NCBI GenBank assembly: GCA_936920195.1
Contig: CAKZHE010000145.1
Location: forward strand, 1 to 19,208
DNA length: 19,208 bases
Origin: an uncultured cyanobacterium
GTDB lineage: Bacteria; Cyanobacteriota; Cyanobacteriia; Cyanobacteriales; FACHB-T130
Direction of reading: 5' to 3'
The position numbers were made by a program, and so were the translations under genes. Below are positions 1-19,023 of this stretch, piece after piece. Numbering within the stretch: the stretch's first letter is position 1; each line of letters opens with the position of its first letter. The notes beneath the pieces were generated by a model. That model saw only the letters and a list, made by a program, of their open reading frames with translations, made no database searches and was not told the DNA's origin.

Positions 1-254
1 GTGTCGAACCCCCTAGTTTAACCGCGCTTACATCCCCGCCCACAAGGGGACGGGGTTTTACGCACGATCAATAAAAACAGATCGCTTAATAAAACTCATT
101 ATTTCAGCATAAATAGCAATCAAATTCTCAGATAGAAGCAAAGTATTGCAAATATCTCCAAACAAGTCTTGCGAAAGAGGGCATCATCTCGAAAAGTTAG
201 TAATAATCAAGGTATGAAATCAAATTTTTAGAAATTTAATAGGAGAGTGGCGTT

Positions 255-407
255 ATGGGTATCTCCAAACTGTTTGGCAGAATGACCAAGTATATTTCCG
301 AAGCAGTAGCGCGGATATTTGGTCCTAACGATGATTCCTATCCAGCAACTGGCGTGCAACCTTTTGAAGGCGTGCCTTTTGAAGCGGGAAAGAATTCTGA
401 TTGGTAA
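255..407 (+). CDS. small hypothetical protein, 50 aa (MGISKLFGRMTKYISEAVARIFGPNDDSYPATGVQPFEGVPFEAGKNSDW). It is absent from the supplied ORF track.
   Basis: Hand translation. ATG at 255-257 is preceded by AGGAGA (243-248) at canonical SD spacing. The frame is open to TAA at 405-407. It is in a different frame from track ORF 319..519. Confidence 0.35.
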   Translation: MGISKLFGRMTKYISEAVARIFGPNDDSYPATGVQPFEGVPFEAGKNSDW

Positions 408-504
408 TGACTATACACAAAAGTTTGTAGTTGGGCTTCAGCCCAACTACAAATTAGGGCTATTGACTTTAACGGTACGTGGAGGGGCGGGTTTATTTAG
501 TATT

Positions 505-588
505 AGTAGGGTGCGTTAGCGATAGCGATAGCGTAACGCACCGTTAACTGGTAGGCGGTGCGTTACGCTGCGGCTAACACACCCTACT
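505..588. repeat. nested palindromic element (hairpin within hairpin): possible small structured RNA or MITE-like repeat
   Basis: Outer stem agtagggtgcgttagc (505-520) pairs with gctaacacaccctact (573-588): 16 bp with 1 mismatch. Inner perfect 12-bp stem gcgtaacgcacc (531-542) pairs with ggtgcgttacgc (558-569). A GCGATA x2 tandem sits between them (519-530). Confidence 0.5.
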
Positions 589-594
589 GGATAA

Positions 595-630
595 AATATG
601 GGGAAGAGTTGTCTTAACTCTCCCCCATAT
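595..630 (-). terminator. probable intrinsic terminator hairpin for the 637..1374 minus-strand gene
   Basis: atatggggaagagtt (595-609) pairs with aactctcccccatat (616-630): 15-bp stem with 1 mismatch and a 6-nt loop. It lies directly 3' of the minus-strand stop at 637-639. On the minus strand it is followed by TTTTAT. Confidence 0.45.
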
Positions 631-636
631 TAGTTT

Positions 637-1374
637 TTAACCCAGAATCGTAGTAGTTAACCAAAAACTCAAAGCCGCACTACCGAGGGGAACAGTCAAA
701 TTATCAATCCCTAGCTTAGAAAATAATTCTACAATAGTGGCAAATAGGGCGACGGCAAGGGAAATTAACCAAATTTGCCAAAAATAGCCTAAACCGAAAA
801 ACAAGACCAAACAACTAACCGCGAAGCTAGCTACAAACATCGTCAAAGAACCTTCCCAACTTTTCTGGATTCCCCAAACCGTGTAGGGATGCTTGCCAAA
901 TTTTTGTCCAATTAGGGCAGCTAACCCATCCCCCCAAGCCATAATTAAAATTCCTAATGCTGCCTGCCAAGGTTGCTCCAGAGGCCAAAACCAGGCTACC
1001 AAAGATCCAATACTAATCGCATAAAAAAAAGTTCCTAGGCTTTTGCGCCCAACGCTATTAATTCCGGGCAGGAAGGGAAATTTATAGGATAAAAGGGCAA
1101 CTATCCCGGCTAAAATTGCAGCAGCGATGATGACGACAGCGGGAATTCCCAGCCACCAAGCGAGTAAAATTACATTGCCAGAACCGATATGAACTAACTT
1201 GCGGGCATTCTCGGAATTGATAACTTGGTAGCGGTGCAAGCCTTCTGCGGTTAACACAACTGCTGCCAGCCAAAAACCCACCATGGCGCTTTGCACCCAA
1301 GGATTAGAAAGGGATGAGAACCAAGATTCAGAAATGAGCAAGAGGTTGGCGGGGAAAAATATTTGATTAAACAC
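637..1374 (-). CDS. polytopic membrane protein of the CTP-dependent polyprenol/phytol kinase (VTE5 / dolichol kinase / CdsA-like) family
   Basis: 245-aa ORF. It is highly hydrophobic with multiple predicted TM helices. The C-terminal motif MAWGDGLAALIGQKFGKH is characteristic of the phytol kinase / dolichol kinase / cytidylyltransferase superfamily. The terminator hairpin lies downstream. Confidence 0.55.
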   Translation of the reverse strand: MFNQIFFPANLLLISESWFSSLSNPWVQSAMVGFWLAAVVLTAEGLHRYQVINSENARKLVHIGSGNVILLAWWLGIPAVVIIAAAILAGIVALLSYKFPFLPGINSVGRKSLGTFFYAISIGSLVAWFWPLEQPWQAALGILIMAWGDGLAALIGQKFGKHPYTVWGIQKSWEGSLTMFVASFAVSCLVLFFGLGYFWQIWLISLAVALFATIVELFSKLGIDNLTVPLGSAALSFWLTTTILG

Positions 1375-1383
1375 TTGATTTAG

Positions 1384-1632
1384 ATGGTGGAAAGAGTGAA
1401 AAGTTTATTAATTTTACTAATTCGCGGTTATCGGTTGATAATTTCGCCTTTATTTCCGCCAGTCTGTCGGTTTCATCCGACTTGCTCCCAATATGCCATA
1501 GAAGCGATCGCTCGTTTTGGCAGTTGGCGGGGGAGTTGGCTGGCAATCCGCAGAATTTCCCGCTGTCATCCTTTGAATCCTGGGGGTTACGATCCTGTAC
1601 CTTTAAGGGAAGAGGAAACAGGGAATAAATAG
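1384..1632 (+). CDS. yidD: membrane protein insertion efficiency factor YidD
   Basis: 82-aa ORF. Hallmark YidD motifs are present: [39 protein letters not shown]. Confidence 0.88.
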
Positions 1633-1931
1633 ATAGGGCTTGCTGAAAAAGCTAAGAAAACCGGAGCCAAATATAACTTGCTAGAATATTCAGCGGCTTG
1701 GGATGCGATCGCCATTTCGCGCCGGGGGAAATCTACTTGCTTATGGAATTGCGATCGCCAATCTCTCTCACCACCCCATATTCCTACAATTTAGCAAATT
1801 ATTGTATAATAAGATTTTACTACAAAATATTTTATCTTTCTTAATAAAAATATAAACGACCTTTTGTGTTTTTAGCTTTTTTATCTTTTATAATAAAGAC
1901 ATAGATTTAAAAAAAATAATGAAGGTAACTT

Positions 1932-2384
1932 ATGGATCCCCTAACTACGGCGGTAACTACCCTACTTTTTAAAGCATTTGAGAAGGGTGGTGAAAAGCTA
2001 GGAGAAGCTGTATCAGCTAAGGTTGGTCAACTGCTAAATATAATTCAGGAGAAATTCAAAGCAGAGCGTATTGAAGGAAAACTCATAAACGCTCAAAAAG
2101 ATCCTTCTGAAGATAATAAAAGCAGATTAGCTCAGGAATTAGCATATCAAATGAAAAATGATGAAGCATTTACCAAAAAAATAAAGGAGTTAGTAGAAGA
2201 GAATTCAGATCAGCATACTCATCATACTCAAAAAATCCTTGCAAACATTGATGTAAAAGGCGACATTGAAGTTGATGGTGGTATAAAGCAAACTGTACCA
2301 TCAGGTGGTTCATCTCAGCAGGAAGCCATCACTAATTCTACGGTTGGTGGTAGTATAAAAGTCGGTAATATAATACAGGATTAA
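1932..2384 (+). CDS. hypothetical protein (150 aa): helical, Lys/Glu-rich N-terminal part and a C-terminal G/I/V beta-repeat (GDIEVDGGIKQT...GGSIKVGNIIQD)
   Basis: ORF track. An AT-rich promoter-like region lies upstream with TATAAT at 1889-1894 and GAAGG 8 nt before the ATG. The gene sits inside the low-GC island (the 2101-2160 line has 18/60 G+C, versus 34/60 at 5521-5580). Confidence 0.6.
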   Translation: MDPLTTAVTTLLFKAFEKGGEKLGEAVSAKVGQLLNIIQEKFKAERIEGKLINAQKDPSEDNKSRLAQELAYQMKNDEAFTKKIKELVEENSDQHTHHTQKILANIDVKGDIEVDGGIKQTVPSGGSSQQEAITNSTVGGSIKVGNIIQD

Positions 2385-2396
2385 TCCAGGGTAAAC

Positions 2397-2445
2397 GCAT
2401 CTGAACAATCATCGGCAAAGTTTCCTAGTTGGATTGTTCAGATGC
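2397..2445 (+). promoter_or_regulatory. perfect 14-bp-stem hairpin between the two island genes (attenuator, processing or regulatory structure)
   Basis: gcatctgaacaatc (2397-2410) pairs with gattgttcagatgc (2432-2445) around a 21-nt loop. No U-tract follows. TATAAT at 2451-2456 and GAGGA at 2477-2481 precede the ATG at 2491. Confidence 0.4.
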
Positions 2446-2490
2446 AACAATATAATTGTGAAGTAAATTTTACTATGAGGACTAATCAAA

Positions 2491-3978
2491 ATGAACGATC
2501 AACCAGAAAAGATTTCTACTCCGACAAATCAAGAAGCGGTGAAAAACCTTACTGCTGGTAGAGACATTACAATTGGAAATATTACTCAAAAAGCTGGGGA
2601 CCATATAGTTAAAATCATCAAAAAACCAGTTAGTATTGCTGTTGGTATTTTTACCGCAATAGTTGGTACAGTTGGTATTATTTTCGCAGGTCGCAATACA
2701 AATAATTCCATAATCACTTATGGAAATGTTACAGATTCTACTATTGCTAATGAAGTAACTATTTATACAGGTGATTCTCCAGAAGTTAAGAAAAAGAAGA
2801 TAGAACAAGCTAAAAACATAATTGCTGTGGAGATATTCACAAATATCCACAACATAGATGCCAGACTGGGTTTAGTTGAAACTGCGCTAAAAGATGATAA
2901 CTTTGAGCAAAATCTACGGGATGTCCGTAACAAAGTTGCACCTTCTCTCAATGAAATCTTTGATTCAGGGTATGGCGTATTGATAAATCAGCAAACAATT
3001 TCATCTCTTCGAGCAGGATTTAATGGTCTTCCCTTAAATGAAGTGCGATCGCCATTGATTCAGGTATTAATTGATGGCAATGCAGATGCTAAAACAGTTC
3101 AAGCATTTTCCAGCAGTTTAACAGAAGTTCAATATGTGTCAGAATCCTTATTTAATGATTTATCGACGACACAGGAAACGTCTACAAAAATGGCACAATC
3201 TTCCAAAAAATTAAGCATAGCAGCCTATAATAAAAAGTCAATAAAGCTTGATGTAGCGCGATTGAAAAATCGTTCTCAAATTGCGTATCTTCGTGGTTTA
3301 ATAGTGCTAGATAGTCTAAAAATTACATTATCTAATGCCCAAGAGAGTCTTAGTTCTCTTAAGCATCTTGAGCCACGTCAACTTGTTACTAAAGAAGAAG
3401 CCATTCAACTGTTAACAACGAAAGTTAAAGAAGGAGAACGTATTCTAGCAGAAAGGACTATACTCTTGGCAGAAATAAAGAATTTACGGGACGCAGCATT
3501 AGATGAATATGCAAAACTTGAAGCGGCAGTAATCCAACCTTCTGATCCTTGGAATGTCGTTAGTGGTAAAGCCATTGCTTTACGCCAGCTAGGACGAACT
3601 ACTGAGTCTGTAGCAGCATTCTCCCGTTATGCTGATATGTTCTCTGAAAAAGATTCAACCGCAAAACAATATTCGCGAACTGCTCAACAATTTACAACTC
3701 AACTTCATAGTCTTCATGTTGACGGTGGCGTATATATATATGAGGTTGTACAAGGTGGAGTTGCCGAAAGTAATGGCATCAAAGTTGGTGATATTATTAT
3801 TCAATATGGAGATAAAGCGATTGCCAATATGCCTGATATTGTGATGGCTCTACATGATCATTCCATAGGAAATTCCATTCCAATAACATATTTGCGGATG
3901 AGTAGTGCTGGGGTATTTCAACGTCAAACAGTATCGGTTAATTCTGCTGCCATTGGTGCGTCAATGATGCCTATCTAA
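2491..3978 (+). CDS. single-pass membrane protein with a C-terminal PDZ domain. The N-terminal cytoplasmic part has a short G/I/V beta-repeat. The central part is long, helical, coiled-coil/TPR-like.
   Basis: 495-aa ORF. Predicted TM helix PVSIAVGIFTAIVGTVGIIFAG (aa ~46-67). The HtrA-type PDZ signature is GGVYIYEVVQGGVAESNGIKVGDIIIQYGDKAIANMPDIVMAL...IPITYLR. The N-terminus AGRDITIGNITQKAGDHIVKII resembles the C-terminus of the upstream ORF. Confidence 0.7.
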   Translation: MNDQPEKISTPTNQEAVKNLTAGRDITIGNITQKAGDHIVKIIKKPVSIAVGIFTAIVGTVGIIFAGRNTNNSIITYGNVTDSTIANEVTIYTGDSPEVKKKKIEQAKNIIAVEIFTNIHNIDARLGLVETALKDDNFEQNLRDVRNKVAPSLNEIFDSGYGVLINQQTISSLRAGFNGLPLNEVRSPLIQVLIDGNADAKTVQAFSSSLTEVQYVSESLFNDLSTTQETSTKMAQSSKKLSIAAYNKKSIKLDVARLKNRSQIAYLRGLIVLDSLKITLSNAQESLSSLKHLEPRQLVTKEEAIQLLTTKVKEGERILAERTILLAEIKNLRDAALDEYAKLEAAVIQPSDPWNVVSGKAIALRQLGRTTESVAAFSRYADMFSEKDSTAKQYSRTAQQFTTQLHSLHVDGGVYIYEVVQGGVAESNGIKVGDIIIQYGDKAIANMPDIVMALHDHSIGNSIPITYLRMSSAGVFQRQTVSVNSAAIGASMMPI

Positions 3979-3993
3979 ATCATAGAAAATACA

Positions 3994-4036
3994 AGGTGTT
4001 TTTTATGCTATAATTAGGGCTGGCTGAAAAACACCT
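3994..4036 (+). terminator. possible terminator or stem-loop downstream of the island
   Basis: aggtgttttt (3994-4003) pairs with aaaaacacct (4027-4036): perfect 10-bp stem with a ~23-nt loop. The 5' arm ends in a T-run. Confidence 0.25.
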
Positions 4037-4150
4037 GAAAGCCAACCTAGATGCCACACAGCGTGAAAAATAGTGGCTTCGGGGGTTAATTCCCAAATTT
4101 ACCCAGCAATTTCCCAGCAATGTGCAAGGGTTTTGAGGCTATAGATAATT

Positions 4151-4879
4151 TTGAATTTTGAATTGATAACAATGAAGCCATATCAACAAGTTCCCATTGA
4201 AGAATGCCAAGAAGCCTTAGTAGCAATTCCTCTGGAAAAATTTGCCGTTGAGTCGCCCCATCCCTACGAAAAACTGGGTGCGCCCTACGGAGAGAAATCG
4301 CCCTATTATCTCCGTCAAAGCGTCCTCGCGGCTCTTGAGCAAGCTCAAGATAATTTAGCAGAATATCGTCCCGGCTGGCGAATTCAAATTTTTGATGCCT
4401 ATCGCCCGATTGCCGTCCAACAATTTATGGTTGATTATACTTTTAATCAACTTGTCCAGGCTCAGGGACTGAAAATAGCCGAATTAAGTACCCCTCAGCA
4501 ACAAGAGATTCTAGAACAGGTTTATCAATTTTGGGCAGTTCCCAGCCACAACCCTGCTACCCCACCCCCCCACAGTACCGGGGCTGCCATTGATATTACC
4601 TTAGTCGATGGGACAGGCCAACCAGTAGATATGGGTTCAGCGATTGATGAAATTTCGCCCCAATCCCATCCCCACTACTTCGATCAAAAAACTCTGCCCA
4701 AAGAACTGGAATATCGCGATCGCCGTCATCTATTGTGGAAAGTGATGCACTTGGCAGGATTTCAGCGCCACCCCAATGAATGGTGGCATTTTTCCCTGGG
4801 CGATCAAATGTGGGCGTGGCTGTGCCAAAGGGAAAACCCAGCATTTGCAACTGTAGCTCGCTACGGTCGAGTAAAATAG
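4151..4879 (+). CDS. ddpX: D-alanyl-D-alanine dipeptidase (VanX/DdpX, peptidase M15D)
   Basis: 242-aa ORF. VanX family motifs are present: FDAYRP, the zinc-ligand motif HSTGAAIDITLVD, and EWWHFS. The true start may be the internal Met at 4172 (MKPYQQ). Confidence 0.85.
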   Translation: MNFELITMKPYQQVPIEECQEALVAIPLEKFAVESPHPYEKLGAPYGEKSPYYLRQSVLAALEQAQDNLAEYRPGWRIQIFDAYRPIAVQQFMVDYTFNQLVQAQGLKIAELSTPQQQEILEQVYQFWAVPSHNPATPPPHSTGAAIDITLVDGTGQPVDMGSAIDEISPQSHPHYFDQKTLPKELEYRDRRHLLWKVMHLAGFQRHPNEWWHFSLGDQMWAWLCQRENPAFATVARYGRVK

Positions 4880-4912
4880 CTGGATAACTTCAGTGAAATT
4901 AATTTACCCATC

Positions 4913-5281
4913 GTGGCAGCATCCATGCGCGTTTACATCTTGCTATTCAATGCCCGGAAAGAAAACGAAGGTATTCATACCATCCGGATTGGCGATCGCA
5001 ACCGAGTGCTAATGTTCGAGTCAGAAGACGATGCGACTCGTTTTGGTTTAATGTTGGAAGCTCAGGATTTTCCCTGTCCTGAAGTCGAACCAATTGATGC
5101 CGACGAAGTGCGGGAATTTTGCCAAAGTGCTGATTATGAGTGGCAACTTGTGCCAGAAGGCGCTTTAGAGCTACCGCCAGAAACCAATCTGGAAGTAACT
5201 GACTGGCAACCAGAGGTCAAAAAACCAGATTTATCTGATGACCTGGACGACATTCGCCGCCAACTGGAACGATTATTGTAG
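4913..5281 (+). CDS. DUF3110-family protein (conserved in cyanobacteria and plastids)
   Basis: 122-aa ORF. MRVYILLFNARKENEGIHTI matches the DUF3110 N-terminal signature, and the C-terminus is acidic. The probable true start is the Met at 4925. Confidence 0.65.
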   Translation: MAASMRVYILLFNARKENEGIHTIRIGDRNRVLMFESEDDATRFGLMLEAQDFPCPEVEPIDADEVREFCQSADYEWQLVPEGALELPPETNLEVTDWQPEVKKPDLSDDLDDIRRQLERLL

Positions 5282-5298
5282 TACCGAAAAATATAGGC

Positions 5299-6213
5299 AT
5301 GGCAAATCTGGAAGAACGGGGGCATTTGCTGACAGAGCAGATTAATCCCAACAGTCAAAATTTAGATCAACTAACGTCTTTGGAATTAGTCGATCTGTTT
5401 AATCGGGAAGATGCTCAAACTCTAGCAGCGATCGCATCTGCCCGCCATCAGTTAGCCCAAGCCATTGACTTGATTGCCGAGGCACTGCGGCACGGGGGCA
5501 GATTATTTTACATCGGAGCGGGGACTAGCGGACGTTTAGGCGTGTTAGATGCGGCAGAATGTCCGCCGACGTTCTGTTCGCCCCCGGAACTGGTACAGGG
5601 GATTATCGCTGGGGGAGCGGCAGCGCTATTACGCAGTTCCGAAGAGTTGGAAGATAAAGCTGAAGATGGAGCCGCTGCGATCGCCCAAAGGCATATTACC
5701 CAATTAGATGTCGTTGTGGGCATTACTGCTGGGGGAACTACTCCCTATGTCTTGGGAGCCATCCAAGCTGCCCAACAACGGGGAGCCGCTACAGTTTACA
5801 TTGCCTGCGTTCCCGCCGATCAAGTTGCCATCGAAACCGACATTGATATCCGGCTGCTGGTTGGTCCGGAAGTAGTCGCCGGATCGACTCGTCTAAAAGC
5901 CGGAACTGTGACTAAAATGGCTTTGAATATCCTTTCCACCGGGGTCATGGTCAAGTTAGGCAAAGTCTACGGCAATCGGATGGTGGATGTAGCGGTGACA
6001 AATAAAAAGCTTCACGACCGGGCTTTAAGGATGTTACAAGATTTGACCAATCTCAGTCGAGAAGAAGCTGCTTATTTGCTCGAACAAAGCGGCAGATCGG
6101 TAAAATTAGCCTTATTAATGCACTGGACAGGTTTAGGCAAAGAAGAAAGCGATCGCCTACTGACCAAATATCAAGGTAATCTCAGATCTGCTGCCCTAAG
6201 TTATCAAAAATGA
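5299..6213 (+). CDS. murQ: N-acetylmuramic acid 6-phosphate etherase
   Basis: 304-aa ORF. SIS-domain signature RLFYIGAGTSGRLGVLDAAECPPTF. The catalytic-region motifs GSTRLKAGTVTKMALN and LKLALLM are typical of MurQ. Confidence 0.9.
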   Translation: MANLEERGHLLTEQINPNSQNLDQLTSLELVDLFNREDAQTLAAIASARHQLAQAIDLIAEALRHGGRLFYIGAGTSGRLGVLDAAECPPTFCSPPELVQGIIAGGAAALLRSSEELEDKAEDGAAAIAQRHITQLDVVVGITAGGTTPYVLGAIQAAQQRGAATVYIACVPADQVAIETDIDIRLLVGPEVVAGSTRLKAGTVTKMALNILSTGVMVKLGKVYGNRMVDVAVTNKKLHDRALRMLQDLTNLSREEAAYLLEQSGRSVKLALLMHWTGLGKEESDRLLTKYQGNLRSAALSYQK

Positions 6214-6259
6214 AGGTTTGTAAAACTTGAGCCAACCCAATTAGCACCCACAAAAAACT

Positions 6260-6402
6260 CCCTATCTTCCCTATCTTCCCTATCTTCCCTATCTTCCCTA
6301 TCTTCCCTATTCCCCATTCCCTATCTTCCCTGTTCCCTGTTCCCTGTTCCCCGTTCCCTGTTCCCTCTTCCCTGTTCCCTGTTCCCTATTCCTATTCCCT
6401 AT
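6260..6402. repeat. heptanucleotide tandem repeat array (TTCCCTA / TTCCCTG variants; STRR-like), ~20 units
   Basis: Direct reading: ccctatcttccctatcttcc...ccctgttccctgttcc...ccctattcctattccctatt. It lies immediately upstream of the ATG at 6410. The plus strand is polypyrimidine. Confidence 0.9.
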
Positions 6403-6409
6403 TAAAAAA

Positions 6410-7921
6410 ATGTTTACTGCATCAGAAACTACCGCCACAGTTTTAATCGTATTAGTCGCTTTAGGCATTCTCGGTTGGGGCTTTTATCGTGCTAAACCCT
6501 TCGGTAAAATCGGCATCCTAGCCTGGTTGCAATCCGTAGCCCTGATGACTCCCTGGCTATTATTTTTCGGCTTATTTGCCGCCGGAATTTACATCAATTT
6601 AGTTGGCATTCTCTTGCTGCTAATTGTTTCCACTGGTTTGTATATCTTCTTGGGCAGTAAACTGCGAGCCGCTAGTCAAGATTTGGGATTGAGAGAACAG
6701 GTGGCTCGCGCTGTCAGAGAGCGACAAGAATCATCAAATCAACCTACTGAGGCAAGTGCCGCGACAACTCCACCTACAGATCCTCTCAAAGTCGAAGTTG
6801 TGCCAATTCCCGATGAAGATTTGAAAAAGATTCAGGGAATTTTTGGGTTTGAAACCTTTTTTGCTACAGAAACTATACCCTATCAGGATGGGGTGATTTT
6901 TAACGGCAATCTGCGGGGGGAACCAGCAACAGTCTACGAACGACTATCTGCTAGTTTAAAAGAAAGATTGAGCGATCGCTATCGGTTATTCCTGATTCAA
7001 AATCCCGAAGAAAAACCCGTAGTCATTATCCTCCCCAGCAGCAACCAACCTCAACCCAGTACCACTGCTCAAAAAGCTTTAGCCGTAGCTCTTTTCCTGG
7101 CTACCGTACTTACCAGCTTAGAAACAGCCAGTTTTTTACTCGGTTTTAGTTTATTTGATAACTTCAATCGTCTCCCCGAAGCCTTACCCCTAAGCTTAGG
7201 TTTTTGGGTAGTCTTAGCCGCCTACGAAATTGGACGGCGATGGGTAGCCAAACAAGAAAAAGTTAGCCTCAGTTGGCCTTTGTTTATTCCCACCGTTCAA
7301 ATTGGATCTTTTGGAGCCATTGTTCGATTTGAATCCCTGCTCCCCAACCGCAGCACCCTGTTTGATATTGCCCTAGCCGGACCCGCAGCCAGCGCGATTA
7401 TTTCAGTCATCATGTTACTAACTGGCTTATTGCTTTCTCATCCCGGCAGTTTATTTCAGATTCCATCGGAGTTTTTTCAAGGCTCAATTTTAGTTGGCAG
7501 TTTGGCTCGCGTTGTCCTCGGTTCGGCTCTCCATCAAACGATTGTTGATATTCACCCGCTAACTGTAATTGGCTGGTTGGGTTTAGTAATTACCGCCTTA
7601 AACTTAATGCCTGCCGGACAACTGGATGGAGGGCGAATTATCCAAGCTATTTACGGACGAAAAATTGCTCGTCGCTCTACCGTTGCCACCCTAATTATTC
7701 TGGGGATTTTATCATTTGCAAATCCCGGCAATCCTTTAGTTTTATATTGGGCGATTGTCATTCTCTTTTTGCAACGGGATTTAGAACGGCCTAGTTTGAA
7801 TGAACTTTCGGAACCAGATGATGCTAGAGCCGCTTTAGGATTATTAGCATTGTTTTTAACCATTGCCACACTCTTACCCCTAACTCCCGGATTAGCTGGT
7901 CGTCTGGGAATTGGCGGATAA
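6410..7921 (+). CDS. site-2-protease (peptidase M50) family membrane protein, EGY-like, with a degenerate zinc-binding motif
   Basis: 503-aa polytopic ORF. The conserved third motif NLMPAGQLDGGRI (NxxPxxxLDGG) is present. Where HExxH is expected, the sequence reads LAAYEIGRRWVA (H to Y and H to R). Confidence 0.7.
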   Translation: MFTASETTATVLIVLVALGILGWGFYRAKPFGKIGILAWLQSVALMTPWLLFFGLFAAGIYINLVGILLLLIVSTGLYIFLGSKLRAASQDLGLREQVARAVRERQESSNQPTEASAATTPPTDPLKVEVVPIPDEDLKKIQGIFGFETFFATETIPYQDGVIFNGNLRGEPATVYERLSASLKERLSDRYRLFLIQNPEEKPVVIILPSSNQPQPSTTAQKALAVALFLATVLTSLETASFLLGFSLFDNFNRLPEALPLSLGFWVVLAAYEIGRRWVAKQEKVSLSWPLFIPTVQIGSFGAIVRFESLLPNRSTLFDIALAGPAASAIISVIMLLTGLLLSHPGSLFQIPSEFFQGSILVGSLARVVLGSALHQTIVDIHPLTVIGWLGLVITALNLMPAGQLDGGRIIQAIYGRKIARRSTVATLIILGILSFANPGNPLVLYWAIVILFLQRDLERPSLNELSEPDDARAALGLLALFLTIATLLPLTPGLAGRLGIGG

Positions 7922-7929
7922 TATCAATT

Positions 7930-8010
7930 GTAGGTTGGGTTGCGCGACAGCAAAACCCAACAAACTACTTATAAATGTTGGGTTTCCACTGTCGTTCCAA
8001 CCCAACCTAC
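7930..8010. repeat. dispersed hairpin repeat, copy A, present as an imperfect inverted pair (MITE- or terminator-like)
   Basis: gtaggttgggttgcgcgacagcaaaacccaacaaac (7930-7965) is identical over 36 nt to 18978-19013. Its imperfect reverse complement lies at 7977-8010. The unit contains an internal hairpin gttgggtt...aacccaac. Confidence 0.7.
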
Positions 8011-8162
8011 TTTGAGTATTATTGAGATCTGCATCACTAGGCCGAAAGTAAATTATCACTAACCAAACCCCTCTGAAATCCTAGTAAGTCAGGAAAGTCC
8101 CATGAATACTATGAAGTAAAGGGATAATTGCTTTCTCAAGCCCTGCTACTAGAGCCGATTTT

Positions 8163-8744
8163 ATGAATGACTCAGAGTGCCAAGAAGATATCATCGCTGC
8201 CAATGAGGAATCGCTGTTGCAATTGAAGCGATCGCTCATTCTCTCCCAAGGCGATTTTTCGATAATATTGGCTTATTGTCCCTCAAAACGCCTGCGGAAG
8301 CAAATTGCCCAACAGCTACATGAGTCATTAGCGATCGCCATCCAAGATCTTACTCTGCCTCCGTCTGCCCAAACGCTATATACTACAATTTATCATGCTC
8401 TGCCCGAACCCCATCCCGAAGCCTTGATGGTATTTGGTTTAGAGTCTGTGGTCAATATTGAAGAATTGTTAGTTGCCACCAACTTTGTCCGCGACGAGTT
8501 TCGCAAGCAATTTTCTTTTCCCCTAGTTCTGTGGGTTAATCAAGAAATTTTACAAAAAATGATTCGGCTCGCCCCAGATTTTAAGAATTGGACAACCACA
8601 GCGATTCGCTTTGAACGAGTCTGCAATAAAGTAGTGGATTTTCCCCATCGTCCCAGCACCTCAACCAAGAGGAGAAAAAAGGCTAAACATAGTTTACCAC
8701 CAATCCAACGCCGATATGATGACGATCGCCCAATCAGTTTATAG
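8163..8744 (+). CDS. hypothetical protein (193 aa) with a basic C-terminal tail
   Basis: ORF track. Coding-like composition. It is convergent with the 8746..9495 ORF and their stop codons abut. From memory, the motif block GDFSIILAYC...LMVFGLESV...FPLVLWVN...LAPDF resembles an N-terminal module of large cyanobacterial multidomain proteins. This is unverified. Confidence 0.5.
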   Translation: MNDSECQEDIIAANEESLLQLKRSLILSQGDFSIILAYCPSKRLRKQIAQQLHESLAIAIQDLTLPPSAQTLYTTIYHALPEPHPEALMVFGLESVVNIEELLVATNFVRDEFRKQFSFPLVLWVNQEILQKMIRLAPDFKNWTTTAIRFERVCNKVVDFPHRPSTSTKRRKKAKHSLPPIQRRYDDDRPISL

Positions 8745-8745
8745 T

Positions 8746-9495
8746 TTATCGCCTTCTCCGTTTAGTTCTTGTGGGACGTTCTGAGCGATACTCCCGCTCA
8801 TCATCGGGATATTCTAACTGGCGGCTAACTTCAGCAAAAAGATCTCTTCGCAGATAGGGATAGTCGCTTACCCACAAATTACGATCGGGAATATAAATAT
8901 CAGAAGTTTTGACAATGCTGCTGAGATCTCCCCGGTAGGACATAACTAGCATCTCCGCAATTAAACCTGGTGCGATCGCTTTGTGTTCCCGACGCAAAGG
9001 AACTTGCAATTGGGTAGTAAATCCGGTTTCATCTCCTACTTCAATATTCAGCCTGCGTTCGCGATTTTCGACAATTACTAATTGGCCTTTTTTATTAACA
9101 GTTTCTTCTTCCCCAATCAACTCTTCGGTAATGTAGATATCTAAAACTTGACCGCGCCAAAAGCCACTATAGGGGAGTTTGCGATTGCTGGCATTGCGAA
9201 TGCTCGCCCATAATACGGGACCCCACAACCAGTATAAACCAAGAAAAATCCCAATTAAAAATAGGATGCCTTCGGAATCTTCCCCCAAAAATGACCGGAG
9301 CAGCAGCAAAACGACGATCCCGACTACCGAAATCAACAGTCGTTTTAAAAAATCTGGAAATTTCCCCCAATAGAAGGTGTACTGAGGGCCAGTCGCCATC
9401 AGGGGGATAATCTGTTCAAATTTTTTGCGGGTTAAGGGGATGAGCATAAGGCCAGAAGCGACTAAAAAGCCAATAATTTTAATTATAACAAACAC
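8746..9495 (-). CDS. hypothetical membrane protein: 3-4 N-terminal TM helices, a soluble C-terminal domain and an Arg-rich tail
   Basis: 249-aa ORF. Its start lies 22 nt downstream of the GH3 gene stop on the same strand, so it is probably the last gene of the operon. Confidence 0.55.
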   Translation of the reverse strand: MFVIIKIIGFLVASGLMLIPLTRKKFEQIIPLMATGPQYTFYWGKFPDFLKRLLISVVGIVVLLLLRSFLGEDSEGILFLIGIFLGLYWLWGPVLWASIRNASNRKLPYSGFWRGQVLDIYITEELIGEEETVNKKGQLVIVENRERRLNIEVGDETGFTTQLQVPLRREHKAIAPGLIAEMLVMSYRGDLSSIVKTSDIYIPDRNLWVSDYPYLRRDLFAEVSRQLEYPDDEREYRSERPTRTKRRRR

Positions 9496-9517
9496 TTTGT
9501 TGAAAATGACTATCAGT

Positions 9518-11044
9518 TTAAAAAAGGGATTTCAATGTTTGTAGCAGTGTATCATTAATGGGGGTTGCGGTCAAAATTGGATGTTTAATTCCGCCCCAAA
9601 TACTCCCGTTACGAACGCGGTCTAATGCTAAAATTTCAGGAATGCGATCGCCTATCAAAACCTGGGTTGGAGCAAGTTGCTCGAGCAGTCTGGCGCGGCG
9701 ATAGTGGATGGATTGGGATAAGAGATTATCCAAATCTTGAGCAATGATATCTGGGGTTTGGATGGCTGAATCTAGTAACAGGATATAGTGCGGGGGATGG
9801 GCAACGGGAACTAAGGTTTTAAAACAGTTTTCTGGCAAGTTTAATTGATTTAATACCTGATGAACAAAGGTTTCTTGAAGTTTTTCGCCAACTAAATCGC
9901 TAATAGAGCTATCGCGCCCTAGAAATTCTAAGCAAGGAGTGTTGTGATACCAATGGGTGACGCGAATGCGATCGCCAATCCGATAGCGATATAAACCGCC
10001 TTTTTGGGATAGGATAATAGTGTATTCCTGCCCGGTGCTGAGTTCGGGTAATTTGTATAAATTGCCAGCATTATCTTCAAACTCAAAAAAAACTTCATCT
10101 AAAACTGGTACATATCCCTCGGCGGCAATTAAGGGAATTGTCATGGGAGCTTCGGTAGCTAATAAACCTTTGCCTTGAATAAATACGCCGGGAAAGTGCG
10201 ATCGCAGTCCTTTAGCTTGATCGGCGGCATTAGCACTATCCCAACAAGAAATTAGTTTTAAATTTGACCAAAGTTCTGTCCAAGGAATATTAGGCTCTGT
10301 TAGCAGTTGTAGACGATGGGCAGAAAGGCGATCGCGCAATTCTGCTTGTAATAACAGATGATTTTCTTGAATATATTTTAAATGGACTTGCAAAAAACTG
10401 GGACTCCAAACAGAAATAATTTCGAGATTTTCTGCCTGTAATAAGGCTAAACAAAGTTGATGTTTAAACCTTTGGGGATCGCGGAGGCGATTAAGTCCAG
10501 CAGGCATGACTAACCAAGGGCGCAACAGCCACTGCAACCAACTATCTAAATAGTCTAAATCATCTTGCAAAGATAGGGGGCGATCTGCGGAGGAATTGGC
10601 TGAATCTAATTGAGGGGAAATACAAGCATAAAGTTTTCCGGTGGAGAATTTCGGTCCATGTTGAATTAAATCCTGCGCCCAGATACAAAACATCTGGTTA
10701 AATGATTTCCGCAGGGAACGAGTATAGGGAATCCATTTAACTGCCCCGCTACTACCAGAAGTTTTTTCATAAAATAAGATTTGTTCGGGAGTTAGGGGAA
10801 TTTTATTTGGTTTAGAATCAGTTAAAATCCAAGGTTCAATGGTATCATAATTCACAATGGGAACGCGCTGCCAATCGGCAACAGAATTAATTCCCAAGAA
10901 TTGACCATACTGGCTAAAAATTAGGCGATCGCAGATATTTTGTTGGACGGCGGCTTGAGTTAATTCGGGGTGATTGAGGGCTTGCTGAAATCGGCGAGCC
11001 GTTGGGGTGAGAACCTGCCCAAAAAGCTGAATAAACTTCCGCAT
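9518..11044 (-). CDS. GH3-family acyl-acid amido synthetase (adenylate-forming; JAR1/GH3-like)
   Basis: 508-aa ORF. GH3 motifs are present: EKTSGSSGAVKWIPYT (the SSGTxxGxxKxIP box) and GLYRYRIGDRIRV (the YRYxxGD box). Confidence 0.78.
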   Translation of the reverse strand: MRKFIQLFGQVLTPTARRFQQALNHPELTQAAVQQNICDRLIFSQYGQFLGINSVADWQRVPIVNYDTIEPWILTDSKPNKIPLTPEQILFYEKTSGSSGAVKWIPYTRSLRKSFNQMFCIWAQDLIQHGPKFSTGKLYACISPQLDSANSSADRPLSLQDDLDYLDSWLQWLLRPWLVMPAGLNRLRDPQRFKHQLCLALLQAENLEIISVWSPSFLQVHLKYIQENHLLLQAELRDRLSAHRLQLLTEPNIPWTELWSNLKLISCWDSANAADQAKGLRSHFPGVFIQGKGLLATEAPMTIPLIAAEGYVPVLDEVFFEFEDNAGNLYKLPELSTGQEYTIILSQKGGLYRYRIGDRIRVTHWYHNTPCLEFLGRDSSISDLVGEKLQETFVHQVLNQLNLPENCFKTLVPVAHPPHYILLLDSAIQTPDIIAQDLDNLLSQSIHYRRARLLEQLAPTQVLIGDRIPEILALDRVRNGSIWGGIKHPILTATPINDTLLQTLKSLF

Positions 11045-11652
11045 TATTCCACCTTTTCATTAATATAAAGTGTGGTCTGAAATTCTATATAAGCGCGATC
11101 GCCAATTTCTGTTCCTGGACCAAGATGGGAACCCGCACCTAGAAAAACATCATTGCCAACTTTAACTTTTTTCAGATATAACATTAAGTTTTGTTTGCGG
11201 GGTTTGATAATGTGAGAACACATGATCACGCGATGTCCAACCAGAACGCGATCGCCAATTTCTATGAAACCGCGATCGGCAATCTCTAATCCCGGAGTCC
11301 AATAAACATTTTTCCCCACCTTCGCTCCCCAAAGTCGCAACCACCAGGAAAATACCCCTGGAATTAGCCGCAGCACCACCTCTAACGCTGGAATTGCAAT
11401 ATAAATAGCTTGAATTTGATGACTGCCCCACCAAGGGCTATAATCCTTACTTAGCAAATAACTAATTCCCTCCTGGACAGGATAGAAATATTGATGCCAT
11501 CGGTACACTAGCAATGGGAATCCATAGAGAGAAAATAACACAGCCAAAAGACCAAATATACTCTGTGAATGCACCCAATAAACTATTGATGCTCCAGTTA
11601 AAAGTAACACTGAAGCCGGAAAAAACAAAAGAACTTTGCTGAGAAAAGTCAT
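11044..11652 (-). CDS. membrane-anchored hexapeptide-repeat (left-handed beta-helix) acyl/acetyltransferase
   Basis: 202-aa ORF. Two N-terminal TM helices. The C-terminus carries LbH repeats: IGDRVLVG, VGNDVFLGAGSHLGPGTEIGDRAYI. Its start overlaps the GH3 stop by 1 nt. Its stop is 2 nt from the upstream gene. Confidence 0.6.
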   Translation of the reverse strand: MTFLSKVLLFFPASVLLLTGASIVYWVHSQSIFGLLAVLFSLYGFPLLVYRWHQYFYPVQEGISYLLSKDYSPWWGSHQIQAIYIAIPALEVVLRLIPGVFSWWLRLWGAKVGKNVYWTPGLEIADRGFIEIGDRVLVGHRVIMCSHIIKPRKQNLMLYLKKVKVGNDVFLGAGSHLGPGTEIGDRAYIEFQTTLYINEKVE

Positions 11653-11653
11653 A

Positions 11654-12406
11654 TTATTTAAAAGGAAAAAAAAGCTTTTTGGTCAATGTTAGGGGTGTGG
11701 TAATTCCGATTTCTGCTGGCAAATCTTTCCCTGGATAAAATGTCCCATGCCATCTATCCCAGAGTTTAAAGTTAGCCCCATAATTGTAGTAGTGAACGCT
11801 ACAAGCATGATGACGAGCATGATCTTGGGGTAAAATTAGCCAAGGCGAGAGGTAGGAGTAGAGCCAACTATGGGGAGAAATAATCAATCGGCTATGTCGC
11901 CATAAATCCAAGGCTGAAGTTAGGCTAATTCCCAAAAGATAGCCTGTGGAATCAGCGAGTAGATATAAAAACAGGGCATGAATCCACAAATAAATAATTA
12001 AAAAACTTGCCCACAGAGTATTTCTAGATGTGCCGAAAACATCCATTTGAGTAACAGTATGATGAGTTTGATGAACTTGCCAAAACCATCCCCTATGCAA
12101 TAAACGATGATTCCAGTAATACCCATAATCGACTACCACGAAACTGAGGATAAAAGTAAAAATTGGCGATAATTGTAGACATCCCTGTTGAGCAGGCAGT
12201 AAATAATTATAAAGTTGATAAATCAAGGTAATTTGCAGCAGGGGAATTAACATTCCTTGAATAGATAATCCGGTACTATCTAGCAGCCAATCTTGCCAAC
12301 TTTTCGTTTTAAGTTGAGTTCTAGCCACGCGATCGCAGATTGTCCAGATTATCAAGCTCCCAAAAACTATTAAAACTAAAAGTTGGGTAAACATTGGCAT
12401 ATTCAC
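11654..12406 (-). CDS. fatty acid hydroxylase superfamily (sterol desaturase / FA hydroxylase, membrane di-iron) enzyme
   Basis: 250-aa hydrophobic ORF. Three His boxes: HRLLH (HX3H), HQTHH (HX2HH) and HARHH (HX2HH). Confidence 0.8.
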   Translation of the reverse strand: MNMPMFTQLLVLIVFGSLIIWTICDRVARTQLKTKSWQDWLLDSTGLSIQGMLIPLLQITLIYQLYNYLLPAQQGCLQLSPIFTFILSFVVVDYGYYWNHRLLHRGWFWQVHQTHHTVTQMDVFGTSRNTLWASFLIIYLWIHALFLYLLADSTGYLLGISLTSALDLWRHSRLIISPHSWLYSYLSPWLILPQDHARHHACSVHYYNYGANFKLWDRWHGTFYPGKDLPAEIGITTPLTLTKKLFFPFK

Positions 12407-12409
12407 ACC

Positions 12410-13432
12410 TCAAACCCAAAAGGTAACTTTAACTGATTGGTGGGAAAGCGATCGCGGATCTTCTCCAGCAGCGATCGCGTCTCGAATTGATTCGACAAAG
12501 ACATGAATTGTATCTGCTGGAGTATTCTGAAATTTTGTGCCATATTTGGCGATCGCCTCACCCTGAATCCCCAATATTTTCACATCTTGTCCAATAATAT
12601 GTTGTGCCGTCCACCAGACAAACGGACGAGCAAACCAATTCCAAATCCCATAATTATAAGTGACATCTGTATAAACCAAAGTTGTATTATCTGTTTCTGG
12701 AATCGATTGGCTAGTAATCAACAAACGGCGATTTTTTCCCATTTTATATTCCACAGAGGTAATATTGGGCATATAAAAGCGATCGATATGCTCAATCTTA
12801 GTTCCTTGGGCATTGAGAAAACCAGCATACCAACCTAAATTGGTTGTTTCATTCTGATATTCTACCAACACGCTACCATCTTTTCGCTCGACAGTCATCT
12901 CTAGTTTTTGCTTACGAGAAGTCCGAAAAACTCCGGGATGAACAGAAGCCGTATGGGGAATATCAATAAAGTTTTCGGCACAATTAGTCACATTGTTCTG
13001 AAAACGATTAATTACTCGGACTGTTTCCCAACCTGGTTGTCCATAATAAGGCATAGGAAAAGGCGTAAAATCTTCGCTGCTGCTATCGGCTAACCGGACA
13101 TAAACATAGCCATCCTGTTCTTTGGTAGCATAAACCTTGGCTTGCCGATGGGGAGAAGGTTTAAAATTATCACCTTCCGAGGGAACAGCAATTACCTTGC
13201 CATGACTATCATATACCCACCCATGATAAGGACATTGCAAAGCATGATTACAAACTTTTCCCACCGACAAACGGCTATTACGATGCAAACAGCGATCGCG
13301 CAATGCCACAGGTTCGCCATTTTCGCCGCGAAATATTGCCAGCCACTCTCCTAAAACGGTTCTTGCTAGTACCGTCTTTGGTTGCAGTTGTTCGCTCAGT
13401 GCTATAATATACCAGAAATCTTCAAATTTCAT
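12410..13432 (-). CDS. Rieske [2Fe-2S] non-heme iron oxygenase (alpha-subunit-like; KshA/PAO/SxtT-type size)
   Basis: 340-aa ORF. Rieske motif CLH-X16-CPYH (RCLHRN...QCPYHGW). Mononuclear iron motif NCAENFIDIPHTASVHPG (E/N-x2-D-x2-H-x4-H). Confidence 0.8.
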   Translation of the reverse strand: MKFEDFWYIIALSEQLQPKTVLARTVLGEWLAIFRGENGEPVALRDRCLHRNSRLSVGKVCNHALQCPYHGWVYDSHGKVIAVPSEGDNFKPSPHRQAKVYATKEQDGYVYVRLADSSSEDFTPFPMPYYGQPGWETVRVINRFQNNVTNCAENFIDIPHTASVHPGVFRTSRKQKLEMTVERKDGSVLVEYQNETTNLGWYAGFLNAQGTKIEHIDRFYMPNITSVEYKMGKNRRLLITSQSIPETDNTTLVYTDVTYNYGIWNWFARPFVWWTAQHIIGQDVKILGIQGEAIAKYGTKFQNTPADTIHVFVESIRDAIAAGEDPRSLSHQSVKVTFWV

Positions 13433-13477
13433 GCTGGTTAGTTGGCAAAGTCGAAGACAATGATATCATTATAAATT

Positions 13478-13768
13478 ATGACATTACAGGAATTGCAAAA
13501 ACAGGTATTGCATTTACCAATTAGCGATCGCTGTATATCTACTCTTTCTAATGAACGAATTTTAGCACTGACAGAACTAGAAATGGCAGCAGATCAAGAT
13601 GCTCGGTTGAGTGAATTACTCGATCGCCAGCAGGCAGGCATTCTTGCCGAAAATGAGTTTCCAGAGCTACAAATTCTTATGCAGACTTATCAAGAAGGAT
13701 TATTGCGGAAAGCAATTGCCCTCAGTGAAGCTGTTAAACGTGGATTAATTGAACCTTTGAGCCAGTGA
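13478..13768 (+). CDS. hypothetical small protein (96 aa), on the opposite strand in the gap between the ferredoxin and Rieske genes
   Basis: ORF track. It occupies a 374-bp gap with no competing minus-strand ORF. It is helical and Glu/Leu-rich. It weakly resembles small addiction-module / antitoxin-like components (MTLQELQKQVLHLPISDR...). This is unverified. Confidence 0.35.
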   Translation: MTLQELQKQVLHLPISDRCISTLSNERILALTELEMAADQDARLSELLDRQQAGILAENEFPELQILMQTYQEGLLRKAIALSEAVKRGLIEPLSQ

Positions 13769-13806
13769 ATCAGATTTCTGAACAAGTCCGAATACAAGAA
13801 TGTGAT

Positions 13807-14133
13807 TTATTGTTTTATTCGGCGAATTTCAAGATTATTCGTTAGGTTAATTTGGCAGGCTAATCGAGCATTTGGATTTTCGGGATATAATGTATCTAGC
13901 ATCTCTTGTTCATCCGGTTGAGGGGGAGAAATATCGCCAATTACCTCAACCAAACAAGTCCCACAAATTCCCGTTCGGCAACCAAACAATAGCGGTGAAT
14001 TGCGAATATTGAGATGCTCAGATAAATTTTGATGCGCTGACAGAATTACCGGAGGATATTCTGTGCCTGGAAAGTAAATCGTACATTGCTCAGACATGGC
14101 AAAAATTCTCCCGCTCAAACCGTTCAAAAGCAC
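13807..14133 (-). CDS. plant-type [2Fe-2S] ferredoxin (electron donor for the Rieske oxygenases)
   Basis: CX4CX2C...C motif: GCRTGICGTC ... ARLACQ. The likely true start is the internal Met (MSEQCTIYF) at about 14097. That would reduce the overlap with the upstream gene to a few nt. Confidence 0.75.
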   Translation of the reverse strand: MLLNGLSGRIFAMSEQCTIYFPGTEYPPVILSAHQNLSEHLNIRNSPLLFGCRTGICGTCLVEVIGDISPPQPDEQEMLDTLYPENPNARLACQINLTNNLEIRRIKQ

Positions 14134-16191: not shown

Positions 16192-16197
16192 TCCTAA

Positions 16198-18946: not shown

Positions 18947-18977
18947 GAAATGAAAAATCAATAACTTCATTATAATC

Positions 18978-19023
18978 GTAGGTTGGGTTGCGCGACAGCA
19001 AAACCCAACAAACCACTTAATCA
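18978..19023. repeat. dispersed hairpin repeat, copy B
   Basis: Identical over 36 nt to 7930-7965, and similar through acttaW. It lies directly downstream of the flotillin stop and just upstream of the IS left end. Confidence 0.7.

Follow-up and report, generated by a model that had tools for sequence, protein, structure and literature searches.

Fungi and animals use amyloid signaling between a receptor and a pore-forming executioner, and so do NLR-linked gene pairs of filamentous bacteria and one Escherichia coli system that has been dissected experimentally. In the bacterial pairs, motifs of about 25 amino acids (aa) at the C-terminus of an effector, termed bacterial amyloid signaling sequences (BASS), recur at the N-terminus of the NLR protein encoded next to it (Dyrka et al. 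2020, bioRxiv 10.1101/2020.01.06.895854). The Bell domains of these effectors are helical, span about 100 aa, and are modelled as bundles of five helices, the first of them hydrophobic; position 2 or 3 is acidic. NB-ARC and NACHT NLRs are their published partners. The E. coli system, Bab/Agp (BASS11), is an abortive-infection antiphage system that combines a Bell-related effector with a non-NLR receptor, and phage infection leads to receptor-dependent amyloid assembly, relocation of the effector to the membrane, and cell death (Ibarlosa et al. 2024, bioRxiv 10.1101/2024.11.07.622273). Here, we analyze a two-gene insert in a stretch of 19,208 nucleotides from an uncultured cyanobacterium of the lineage FACHB-T130 (assembly GCA_936920195.1, contig CAKZHE010000145.1, positions 1 to 19,208 of the forward strand; hereafter the window). 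The insert encodes proteins of 150 and 495 aa, which we call ORF150 and ORF495 after their open reading frames (ORFs). We favor, with moderate confidence, the reading that it is a horizontally acquired Bell/BASS cell-death or defense module with a new type of non-NLR receptor.

The reading starts from a short motif that the two proteins have in common. The C-terminal segment of ORF150 and the N-terminal segment of ORF495 listed in Table 1 align with a Smith-Waterman score of 56 (z 6.3), which none of 2000 shuffles reached; the next-best neighboring ORF scored 33 against the ORF495 N-terminus. For comparison with published motifs we used a BASS4 pattern of roughly Q..(I/L)..(V)xVGG(N)LxxG(N/D)(I/V)xQ. 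Table S2 of Dyrka et al. 2020 assigns to BASS4 the segment aa 127-152 of the Leptolyngbya PCC 7376 protein AFY38362.1, SGGNVSQEAITDVKVGGNLKIGNVDQ, and, on the NLR side, segments such as KKIIQKAISDIVVHGNLTVGDITQ and ILQSILQNVQVGGNLTTGNITQ. The ORF150 tail SGGSSQQEAITNSTVGGSIKVGNIIQ is identical to the Leptolyngbya segment at 15 of 26 positions by hand count and occupies the same position in a protein of similar size, and the ORF495 segment NQEAVKNLTAGRDITIGNITQ fits the NLR-side pattern ILQSILQNVQVGGNLTTGNITQ. G, V, and Q are over-represented in the tail and P and L nearly absent from it; the same bias, G/V/Q enrichment with P/L depletion, has been reported for BASS motifs. Judged by sequence, the motif shared by ORF150 and ORF495 is the published BASS4. 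The preliminary description of the window had missed it and had left the pair as a module of unknown function, a verdict that a specific mechanism can now replace.

ORF150 is a putative Bell-type protein by predicted fold class and by the resemblance of its N-terminus: the five helices modelled by AlphaFold2 (AF2) and the MDPLT or MEPLT start of the family match the published Bell description. The helices span residues 3-17, 25-44, 48-56, 60-76, and 78-89, with block confidence (pLDDT) of 73-93 except for 56 at residues 21-30; the tail is modelled at low confidence with short predicted beta-strands. Position 2 is acidic in 17 of 18 family members, 13 of the 18 start with MEPLT, and ORF150 itself, which starts with MDPLT, has a hydrophobic first helix and an acidic position 2 as well as the five-helix layout. 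Bell and Babybell domains have been described with a ‘MEPIS’ N-terminus and four helices cupping helix 1. Searches of the PDB by structure and by sequence gave nothing informative, so the support for homology of the helical domain to Bell domains is indirect. The label of a soluble protein in the preliminary description was incomplete in that it overlooked this Bell-type, predicted membrane-targeting domain. Upstream of the BASS4 tail lies a degenerate pseudorepeat of the motif, and published BASS4 motifs are often repeated on the Bell side. Homologs of ORF150 are rare (20 clusters among 5.8 billion) and uniform in length (145-171 aa, save one fragment of 86 aa). Pfam, NCBIfam, PHROGs, and PADLOC gave no match to ORF150 above cut-off. 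We took as noise a match to DUF6175 that scored 21.5 bits (cut-off 23), and PF20701, precomputed on two ORF150 homologs, was not reproduced with current Pfam.

ORF495 is the candidate receptor. As had been described, it has one hydrophobic segment (aa ~46-67), flanked on its N side by KIIKK, and a C-terminal PDZ domain, which is its sole Pfam match. The PDZ is closest to those of RseP/MucP and of HtrA-type proteins, and the best partial NCBIfam matches are the PDZ parts of HtrA/Do proteases, in agreement with the earlier view of an HtrA-type PDZ without a protease. The models SerProtHtrA, degP_htrA_DO, and RseP cover only the PDZ (aa ~400-472), at 12-38 bits against cut-offs of 147-800. Pfam and NCBIfam found neither a protease domain, which places ORF495 outside the HtrA/DegP/DegS and RseP families, nor an NTPase or P-loop, which places it outside the NLRs. 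The AF2 model (mean pLDDT 75) leaves aa 1-81, with the motif and the transmembrane segment (TM), disordered, shows long helices at aa 97-345 and TPR-like hairpins at aa 354-408, and puts the PDZ at aa 414-494. Directly after the PDZ, the extreme C-terminus of the family reads hydrophobic-M-P-I-COOH (aa 491-495 in ORF495, window 3961-3975); 78 of the 89 family members with a near-complete core, the set used in our Pfam and TM scans, end in I. This conserved tail is suggestive of a ligand for the PDZ groove in cis or in trans, and as such it could be autoinhibitory or oligomerizing.

The pairing of motifs extends beyond the window. At 11 cyanobacterial loci we compared the receptor segment that precedes the TM with the neighboring ORFs, and in 8 of them the best match was the small ORF immediately upstream on the same strand (scores 52-88, z 5.9-12.6). 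Four cognate motif classes emerge, in a block-diagonal matrix where members of one class score 42-88 with each other and 19-40 with those of other classes. Class A, VxVGGxxKIGNVxQ, is that of the window and of locus L023. Class B, SQSIxIxxSxVSGxQxGQAxxxLTQ, is found in Pseudanabaena, Stenomitos, Oscillatoria, and Halomicronema, where it stands at the N-terminus of a different helical partner of 142-147 aa. Class C, GVAGNVEGxQ, is that of locus L007, and class D, GNxGIGxMSxGVIKxNAQxIG, that of Pleurocapsa. Because neighbors match in the motif whatever the globular domain of the partner, we read the shared motif as the signature of an adaptor. All class A loci checked (the window, L023, and L052/L053) keep both genes as a pair, contrary to the other counter-evidence that the preliminary description had named, a pair not conserved together. 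A fragment search of the published BASS table did not find classes B, C, and D.

The globular domains differ in the partners of classes B, C, and D (L007 5302-5901 and 7920-9791; L014 4899-5288; L005 7532-7960). One of these domains is helical and ends in WLGVAAGFF; another, ending in ...GWQK, is common to class C and class D partners. L007 also encodes a third protein, a pentapeptide-repeat protein of 623 aa with the class C motif internal at aa 466-500.

The small effectors in turn are found with different receptors. At two loci, L048 (Cyanobacteria bacterium UBA8553) and L050, the ORF150 homolog is followed after 4 bp by the gene of a larger protein, of 660 aa at L048 (5461-7443) and of 694 aa at L050 (5461-7545). 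Each of the two larger proteins combines, from N- to C-terminus, BASS4, a P-loop NTPase (GAGKT), and multiple TMs; they have no Pfam match on record and look like NLR-like receptors with a membrane C-terminus. At L052 the partner of the ORF150 homolog is a PDZ receptor. The effector family plugs into at least three receptor types, namely the published NLRs, the NTPase-TM proteins, and the TM-PDZ proteins. Toxin-antitoxin genes and IS605 TnpB are often found in the neighborhoods of the homologs.

The receptor family is rare and scattered. ORF495 homologs form 39 clusters among 5.8 billion, relatives occur in 13 of 185,579 species genomes, and an exhaustive profile search for the core recovered 153 representatives at E <= 1e-30, from Cyanobacteria, Desulfobacterota, Chloroflexi, Gammaproteobacteria, and archaeal metagenome-assembled genomes (MAGs). 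The named cyanobacterial hosts are Pseudanabaena PCC 6802, Oscillatoria CS-180, Halomicronema CCY15110, Stenomitos, and Pleurocapsa. This distribution is the opposite of the ubiquitous core genes that the preliminary description had named as evidence against its interpretation. Among the 89 members with a near-complete core, we found TIR_2 in 13, TRADD-N in 2, DUF4062 in 2, and a caspase, a trypsin-like peptidase, a calcineurin-like phosphoesterase, EAD7, EAD9, and a protein kinase in one member each; some members have HTH domains. Where position was checked, the effector or adaptor domains are N-terminal to the core, in the place of the motif. At least one TM is predicted between the N-terminal module and the core in 61 of the 89 members. 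One-TM members with an N-terminal domain have an excess of K+R on the N side in 23 of 27 cases and the reverse in none, and in two-TM members the loop between the TMs is the most basic segment. Based on these K+R counts, that is, on positive-inside statistics, the core is predicted to lie outside the cytoplasm in both the one-TM and the two-TM forms.

Two-TM relatives of ORF495 that carry no effector domain are preceded by a small ORF with a 4-bp overlap (L015 1746-2021; L040 5693-5983; L021 5384-5770). Their hosts are non-cyanobacterial MAGs and Desulfogranum marinum. The small ORFs encode predicted membrane proteins of 91-128 aa as called, with an N-terminal segment, MEIASFIQIAKHLTPPLLLVGLAV, that resembles the N-terminal TM segment of the receptor, MNLASFLNHPLTLIGLVLLG. 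These loci may be a membrane-embedded form of the shared-segment principle. Upstream of another two-TM member, L030 1704-5501 includes ORFs that, judged by eye from their N-terminal sequences, resemble a caspase-like protein, a metallophosphoesterase, and an IS200-type transposase, which would again be a conflict-system context.

Like the pairs of Dyrka et al. 2020, the window pair is cyanobacterial and joins a helical protein of about 150 aa, with a G/N/Q/V-rich C-terminal motif of about 22 aa, to an adjacent collinear gene whose product has the same motif at its N-terminus. Unlike them, ORF495 has no NB-ARC or NACHT NTPase and no NLR-type TPR or WD array, and has a TM, a helical bundle, and a PDZ instead; moreover, its gene is separated from that of ORF150 by 106 bp with a hairpin, whereas most published pairs are <=10 bp apart. 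The pair would work as a BASS pair but is outside the original NLR-based definition, and Bab/Agp is the precedent for a receptor that is not an NLR. With Bab/Agp it shares a five-helix, Bell-related effector with a conserved N-terminal helix, a non-NLR receptor, and an amyloid motif of about 20 residues as the sole link between the two. The motifs differ (BASS11 as opposed to BASS4), Bab is shorter (109 aa), and the receptors have no detectable sequence similarity.

More distant parallels are HET-S/NWD2 in fungi, with the HRAM motif, and the RHIM/cRHIM systems of animals, in which the receptor carries one motif copy and the effector one or two, and ligand-induced clustering nucleates the fold. 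The closest analog in layout is Drosophila PGRP-LC/Imd, whose transmembrane receptor has its sensor outside the cell and its amyloid motif in the cytoplasm. None of these has a sequence relationship to the window pair. PGRP-LC senses peptidoglycan through its PGRP domain, and its output is gene expression rather than a pore-former. The domain swapping recalls the EAD/TRADD-N conflict systems, for which Kaur et al. 2020 and 2021 (PMC7159879, PMC8195603) describe a constant core with swappable N-terminal EAD7, EAD9, TRADD-N, TIR, caspase, trypsin, and phosphoesterase domains and a sporadic, horizontally spread distribution enriched in filamentous cyanobacteria. Alternative N-terminal domains, and an adaptor duplicated onto a stand-alone partner, are found in the family of ORF495 as well, with four classes of short motif. 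In contrast, those systems are built on NTPases (STAND, GTPases, MoxR-vWA) or EACC components, and ORF495 has no NTPase core; we found no description of a TM-helical-PDZ core in the passages searched. DegS, RseP/MucP, and HtrA/DegP differ from ORF495 in having a protease domain, and the predicted output of ORF495 is a cytoplasmic adaptor motif or death effector rather than cleavage of an anti-sigma factor. A full-text literature search of incomplete coverage, together with the BASS papers, returned no relevant case of BASS or TIR combined with a TM and a PDZ in one receptor. A Bell effector with BASS4 was already known; that we found no description of this receptor architecture, or of BASS on a periplasm-facing receptor, is weak evidence that they are new.

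The genomic setting is that of an insertion. L045, a metagenome contig (JGI) from a relative about 96% identical, has the empty site: its ddpX, encoding a protein 97% identical to DdpX of the window, follows yidD after 34 bp, and the two-gene pair is absent. Window positions 595-1638 align by blastn with L045 1814-2865 (94.5%) and positions 4147-6222 with 2880-4955 (96.9%), leaving 14 bp in L045 where the window has about 2.5 kb. The right border given in the preliminary description, 4140, agrees with this comparison, while the left one moves 150 bp leftward, from 1790 to about 1639. Positions 1790-4140 have the lowest GC content of any 2351-bp segment in the window (35.9%, against 43.1% in the remainder and 42.2% overall), and GC at third codon positions (GC3) is 0.238 in ORF150 and 0.232 in ORF495, compared to 0.337-0.452 in the 16 other genes. 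The island is therefore poorer in GC, as had been noticed, by about 7 points of GC and 11-22 points of GC3; the contrast of 30% to 57% first reported came from two extreme 60-nt samples, the higher of them from the sole GC peak of the window. With 32 HIP1 sites (GCGATCGC) against 0.15 expected by chance, the window is cyanobacterial. Three of these sites (1705, 1751, and 3045) are in the insert, where only the one at 3045-3052 had been seen and taken as a possible sign of partial amelioration. We reject that interpretation: the coding 2 kb has 1 site where about 3.6 would be expected (Poisson estimate, P ~0.13), so the depletion is not significant, and because all close homologs are cyanobacterial, with cyanobacteria probably the donors, the site is uninformative on amelioration. 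The empty site, the outlying GC3, and the rarity of homologs support the horizontal acquisition proposed earlier, and the low GC3 favors gain in the lineage of the window over loss in that of L045.

The opposite view, that these are native low-GC core genes or that the pair was deleted from L045 without any horizontal transfer, seems to us very improbable. The GC gap is modest, the insert has HIP1 sites as host DNA does, and its ends offer no transposase or integrase gene and no clear target-site duplication, only a 7-nt ATAGATA at the left junction that recurs at the right junction (4141-4147, by junction alignment) and a short, imperfect 22-nt repeat. Native genes would not, however, be expected to stand outside the GC3 range of all 16 other genes, to have homologs that are extremely sparse and scattered across phyla, or to have their junction precisely where two genes adjoin in L045. 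If the pair was acquired, it could still serve a purpose other than cell death. Its PDZ might report periplasmic stress in the manner of DegS or RseP, with the motif as a stoichiometric beta-strand contact and ORF150 as an adaptor or regulator, without amyloid or death. The kinship of the PDZ with domains that serve envelope-stress signaling and the housekeeping and cell-wall genes around the pair (ddpX, a MurQ-like SIS protein, and an M50 protease) speak for such a non-lethal scaffold, yet we consider it unlikely: the motif belongs to a published BASS class tied to Bell domains and NLRs, the TIR, caspase, TRADD-N, and EAD replacements typify death and immunity systems rather than stress regulons, and the pair is a rare, strain-variable insertion with no protease, sigma, or anti-sigma partner instead of a conserved regulon member. 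Less probable again is a selfish, non-sensing addiction cassette of the toxin-antitoxin kind, in which ORF495 would restrain ORF150, a membrane toxin, through the motif. A horizontally mobile, strain-variable cassette of two genes has that appearance, and homologs adjoin classical toxin-antitoxin pairs (ParE, BrnT/BrnA, Gp49/HTH, and DUF433/DUF5615), but a membrane protein of 495 aa with a conserved bundle, a TPR-like region, and a PDZ goes far beyond an antitoxin in complexity. In addition, where the core is fused directly to TIR or caspase effectors it cannot be the antitoxin of a separate toxin, and in the experiments on Bab/Agp the role of the large partner is that of an activator of the small one, not of an inhibitor.

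We return to the Bell/BASS module and propose, on the model of Bab/Agp, how it might work. ORF495 would be a membrane-spanning sensor with a cytoplasmic N-terminus of 45 residues that carries BASS4 and with the bundle, the TPR-like hairpins, and the PDZ outside. The external module would detect a signal and the receptor would oligomerize. The signal might, as a guess, be an exposed peptide C-terminus or envelope damage, arising from phage or from lysis of a neighboring cell, and it could vie for the PDZ groove with the conserved hydrophobic-MPI tail of the receptor itself. The PDZ subtype and its predicted location suggest as input peptide C-termini bared by envelope damage, phage, or neighbor lysis. 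Clustered cytoplasmic BASS4 motifs would then nucleate a cross-beta, amyloid-like fold that would template the BASS4 tail of ORF150, and refolding of the tail would free the hydrophobic N-terminal Bell helix (MDPLT...) to insert into the membrane, so that the cell is killed or arrested. In this scheme the amyloid state, the attack on the membrane, the lethal outcome, and the trigger are inferred, whereas the insertion, the shared motif and its match to BASS4, the cognate pairing in four classes, the Bell-like features, the swapping of N-terminal domains, and the topology statistics are results of the analysis. The earlier suggestion of a membrane-signaling or protective module was right in spirit; taken as a whole, the observation behind it was partly confirmed and its interpretation partly supported.

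Several findings weigh against this reading. No partner is encoded near the receptor in 3 of the 11 cyanobacterial loci (L008, L025, and L026), and the internal pseudorepeat of ORF150 is statistically weak (z 1.8-3.9). PADLOC-DB v2 has no match to either protein at E values up to 1, PHROGs gave no defense match, and the genes flanking the pair in the window are housekeeping genes rather than a defense island. In the accessible part of the published BASS work, BASS1, BASS3, and BASS11 are the motifs shown to form fibrils, and BASS4 is not among them. The step of an external sensor is weakened because 28 of the 89 receptor-family members have no predicted TM; cytoplasmic versions probably exist as well, and the core may act there too.

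Table 1. Features of the two-gene insert and its borders, in positions of the window.
Feature	Position	Strand	Basis
Inserted segment with the two-gene module	1639..4140	+	blastn and junction alignment against L045
Left copy of imperfect 22-nt direct repeat, ATAGATAGGGCTTGCTGAAAAA, across left junction	1629..1650	+	19/22 identity with 4010-4031
Extended -10-like element, TGTATAAT, candidate promoter of the pair	1803..1810	+	read by eye
Two 25-nt direct repeats, TTTTATCTTTCTTAATAAAAATATA / TTTTATCTTTTATAATAAAGACATA, each with TTTTATCTTT	1830-1854, 1879-1903	+	84% identical, 49-nt spacing
ORF150, 150 aa, predicted Bell-type effector with BASS4 tail	1932..2384	+	ORF list
Bell-like helical domain, aa 1-89 (predicted)	1932..2198	+	AF2, five helices; helix 1 hydrophobic, starts MDPLT
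Degenerate first motif pseudorepeat, aa 100-120, QKILANIDVKGDIEVDGGIKQ	2229..2291	+	internal alignment with second repeat
Effector BASS4 motif, aa 128-149, SQQEAITNSTVGGSIKVGNIIQ	2313..2378	+	alignment with ORF495 aa 12-33
Perfect hairpin, 14-bp stem, in 106-nt ORF150-ORF495 spacer	2397..2445	+	inverted repeat, 100% complementary
ORF495, 495 aa: BASS4 motif, TM, helical bundle, TPR-like hairpins, PDZ	2491..3978	+	ORF list, Pfam, AF2
Receptor BASS4 motif, aa 12-33, TNQEAVKNLTAGRDITIGNITQ	2524..2589	+	matches ORF150; resembles published NLR-side BASS4
Single TM, aa 46-67, PVSIAVGIFTAIVGTVGIIFAG, predicted N-in/C-out	2626..2691	+	Kyte-Doolittle peak
Long helical bundle, aa 97-345, predicted outside cytoplasm	2779..3525	+	
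TPR-like helical hairpins, aa 354-408, best-conserved region in the family	3550..3714	+	K360 and R365 invariant
PDZ domain plus conserved extreme C-terminus (...SMMPI)	3721..3975	+	
Two predicted hairpins in 3' non-coding end of insert	3981..4049	+	RNA fold of 3975-4060, -19.6 kcal/mol, z -2.3
Right copy of 22-nt direct repeat, ATAATTAGGGCTGGCTGAAAAA, in 3' non-coding end of insert	4010..4031	+	repeat search

The two ORFs have the lengths first reported for them, and the AT-rich region upstream contains both the leader repeats and the TATAAT-like motif that had been noted there. The 25-nt repeats are possible operator sites; they are not conserved upstream of the homologs in L023, L048, L050, and L052, and the upstream regions of homologous pairs have only a ribosome-binding site and start, AGGTAAnTTATGGA, in common. 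The promoter consensus scan did not list the extended -10-like element, which has no good -35 element, and the promoter and terminator scan found sites no more numerous than in shuffled sequence. The hairpin between the genes (RNA fold of 2380-2495, -28.8 kcal/mol, z -3.6) may set the ratio of effector to receptor expression; the genes of homologous pairs are separated by 4 bp (L023, L048, L050) or 5 bp (L052), compared to 106 nt in the window. Downstream, the two predicted hairpins are a possible terminator region, which the terminator scan did not call. No RNA family of Rfam matched the window.

The left junction of the insert sits among short GGGAATAG/AGATAGGG-type repeats, units that are the reverse complement of those in a tandem array at 6259-6400. 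This array, upstream of the M50 protease gene, consists of 9-mers TCCCTATCT (~8.6 copies) and 7-mers TTCCCTG (~14 copies) and has an extreme GC skew; the reverse complements of its units (AGATAGGG, GGGAATAG, CAGGGAA) are found at the 3' end of yidD, at the left junction of the island, and at the empty site of L045. A reciprocal difference separates the two strains at window 8011-8020 (8 bp), where L045 (6617-9047) has about 2.4 kb extra, with genes for two proteins (230 and 480 aa) that have no Pfam match. The neighborhood of the island contains in this way a further two-gene cassette that varies between strains. Short dispersed repeats of 41-83 nt at window 7928-8010 and 18972-19019 match more than one place in L045 and may be small mobile or repetitive elements. 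On the reverse strand, 9518-13432 holds an operon-like series of genes for a GH3 acyl-acid amido synthetase, a hexapeptide transferase, a fatty-acid hydroxylase, and a Rieske/VanA-type oxygenase, possibly a small tailoring pathway unrelated to the island.

In the window, BASS4 and a Bell-type effector come with another kind of sensor, a membrane-spanning protein whose conserved, PDZ-ending part is predicted to face the periplasm. We speculate, as a tentative and somewhat doubtful extension, that ORF495 represents an undescribed family of prokaryotic transmembrane immune receptors in which a periplasm-watching helical/PDZ module is connected to interchangeable cytoplasmic death outputs, and that this is the first bacterial case of amyloid signaling started by a membrane receptor, functionally analogous to PGRP-LC/Imd of Drosophila. 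These outputs may be the BASS motif in the window and TIR, caspase, TRADD-N, and EAD in other members. If the reading of the pair as a Bell/BASS module with a periplasm-facing sensor is right, the amyloid motif can be exchanged freely as one plug among several, on a par with TIR, caspase, TRADD-N, and EAD on one core, and a rare, scattered sensor family of about 150 representatives is not recognized by the defense-system catalogs searched. It would also mean that the trigger for regulated cell death in bacteria can come from outside the cytoplasm. Because one natural strain has the 2.5-kb insert and another lacks it, the hypothesis can be tested directly. The cells of filamentous cyanobacteria share a continuous periplasm, and a filament equipped with such a receptor could sense the lysis of a neighbor or a phage attack on it and sacrifice cells ahead of the infection.

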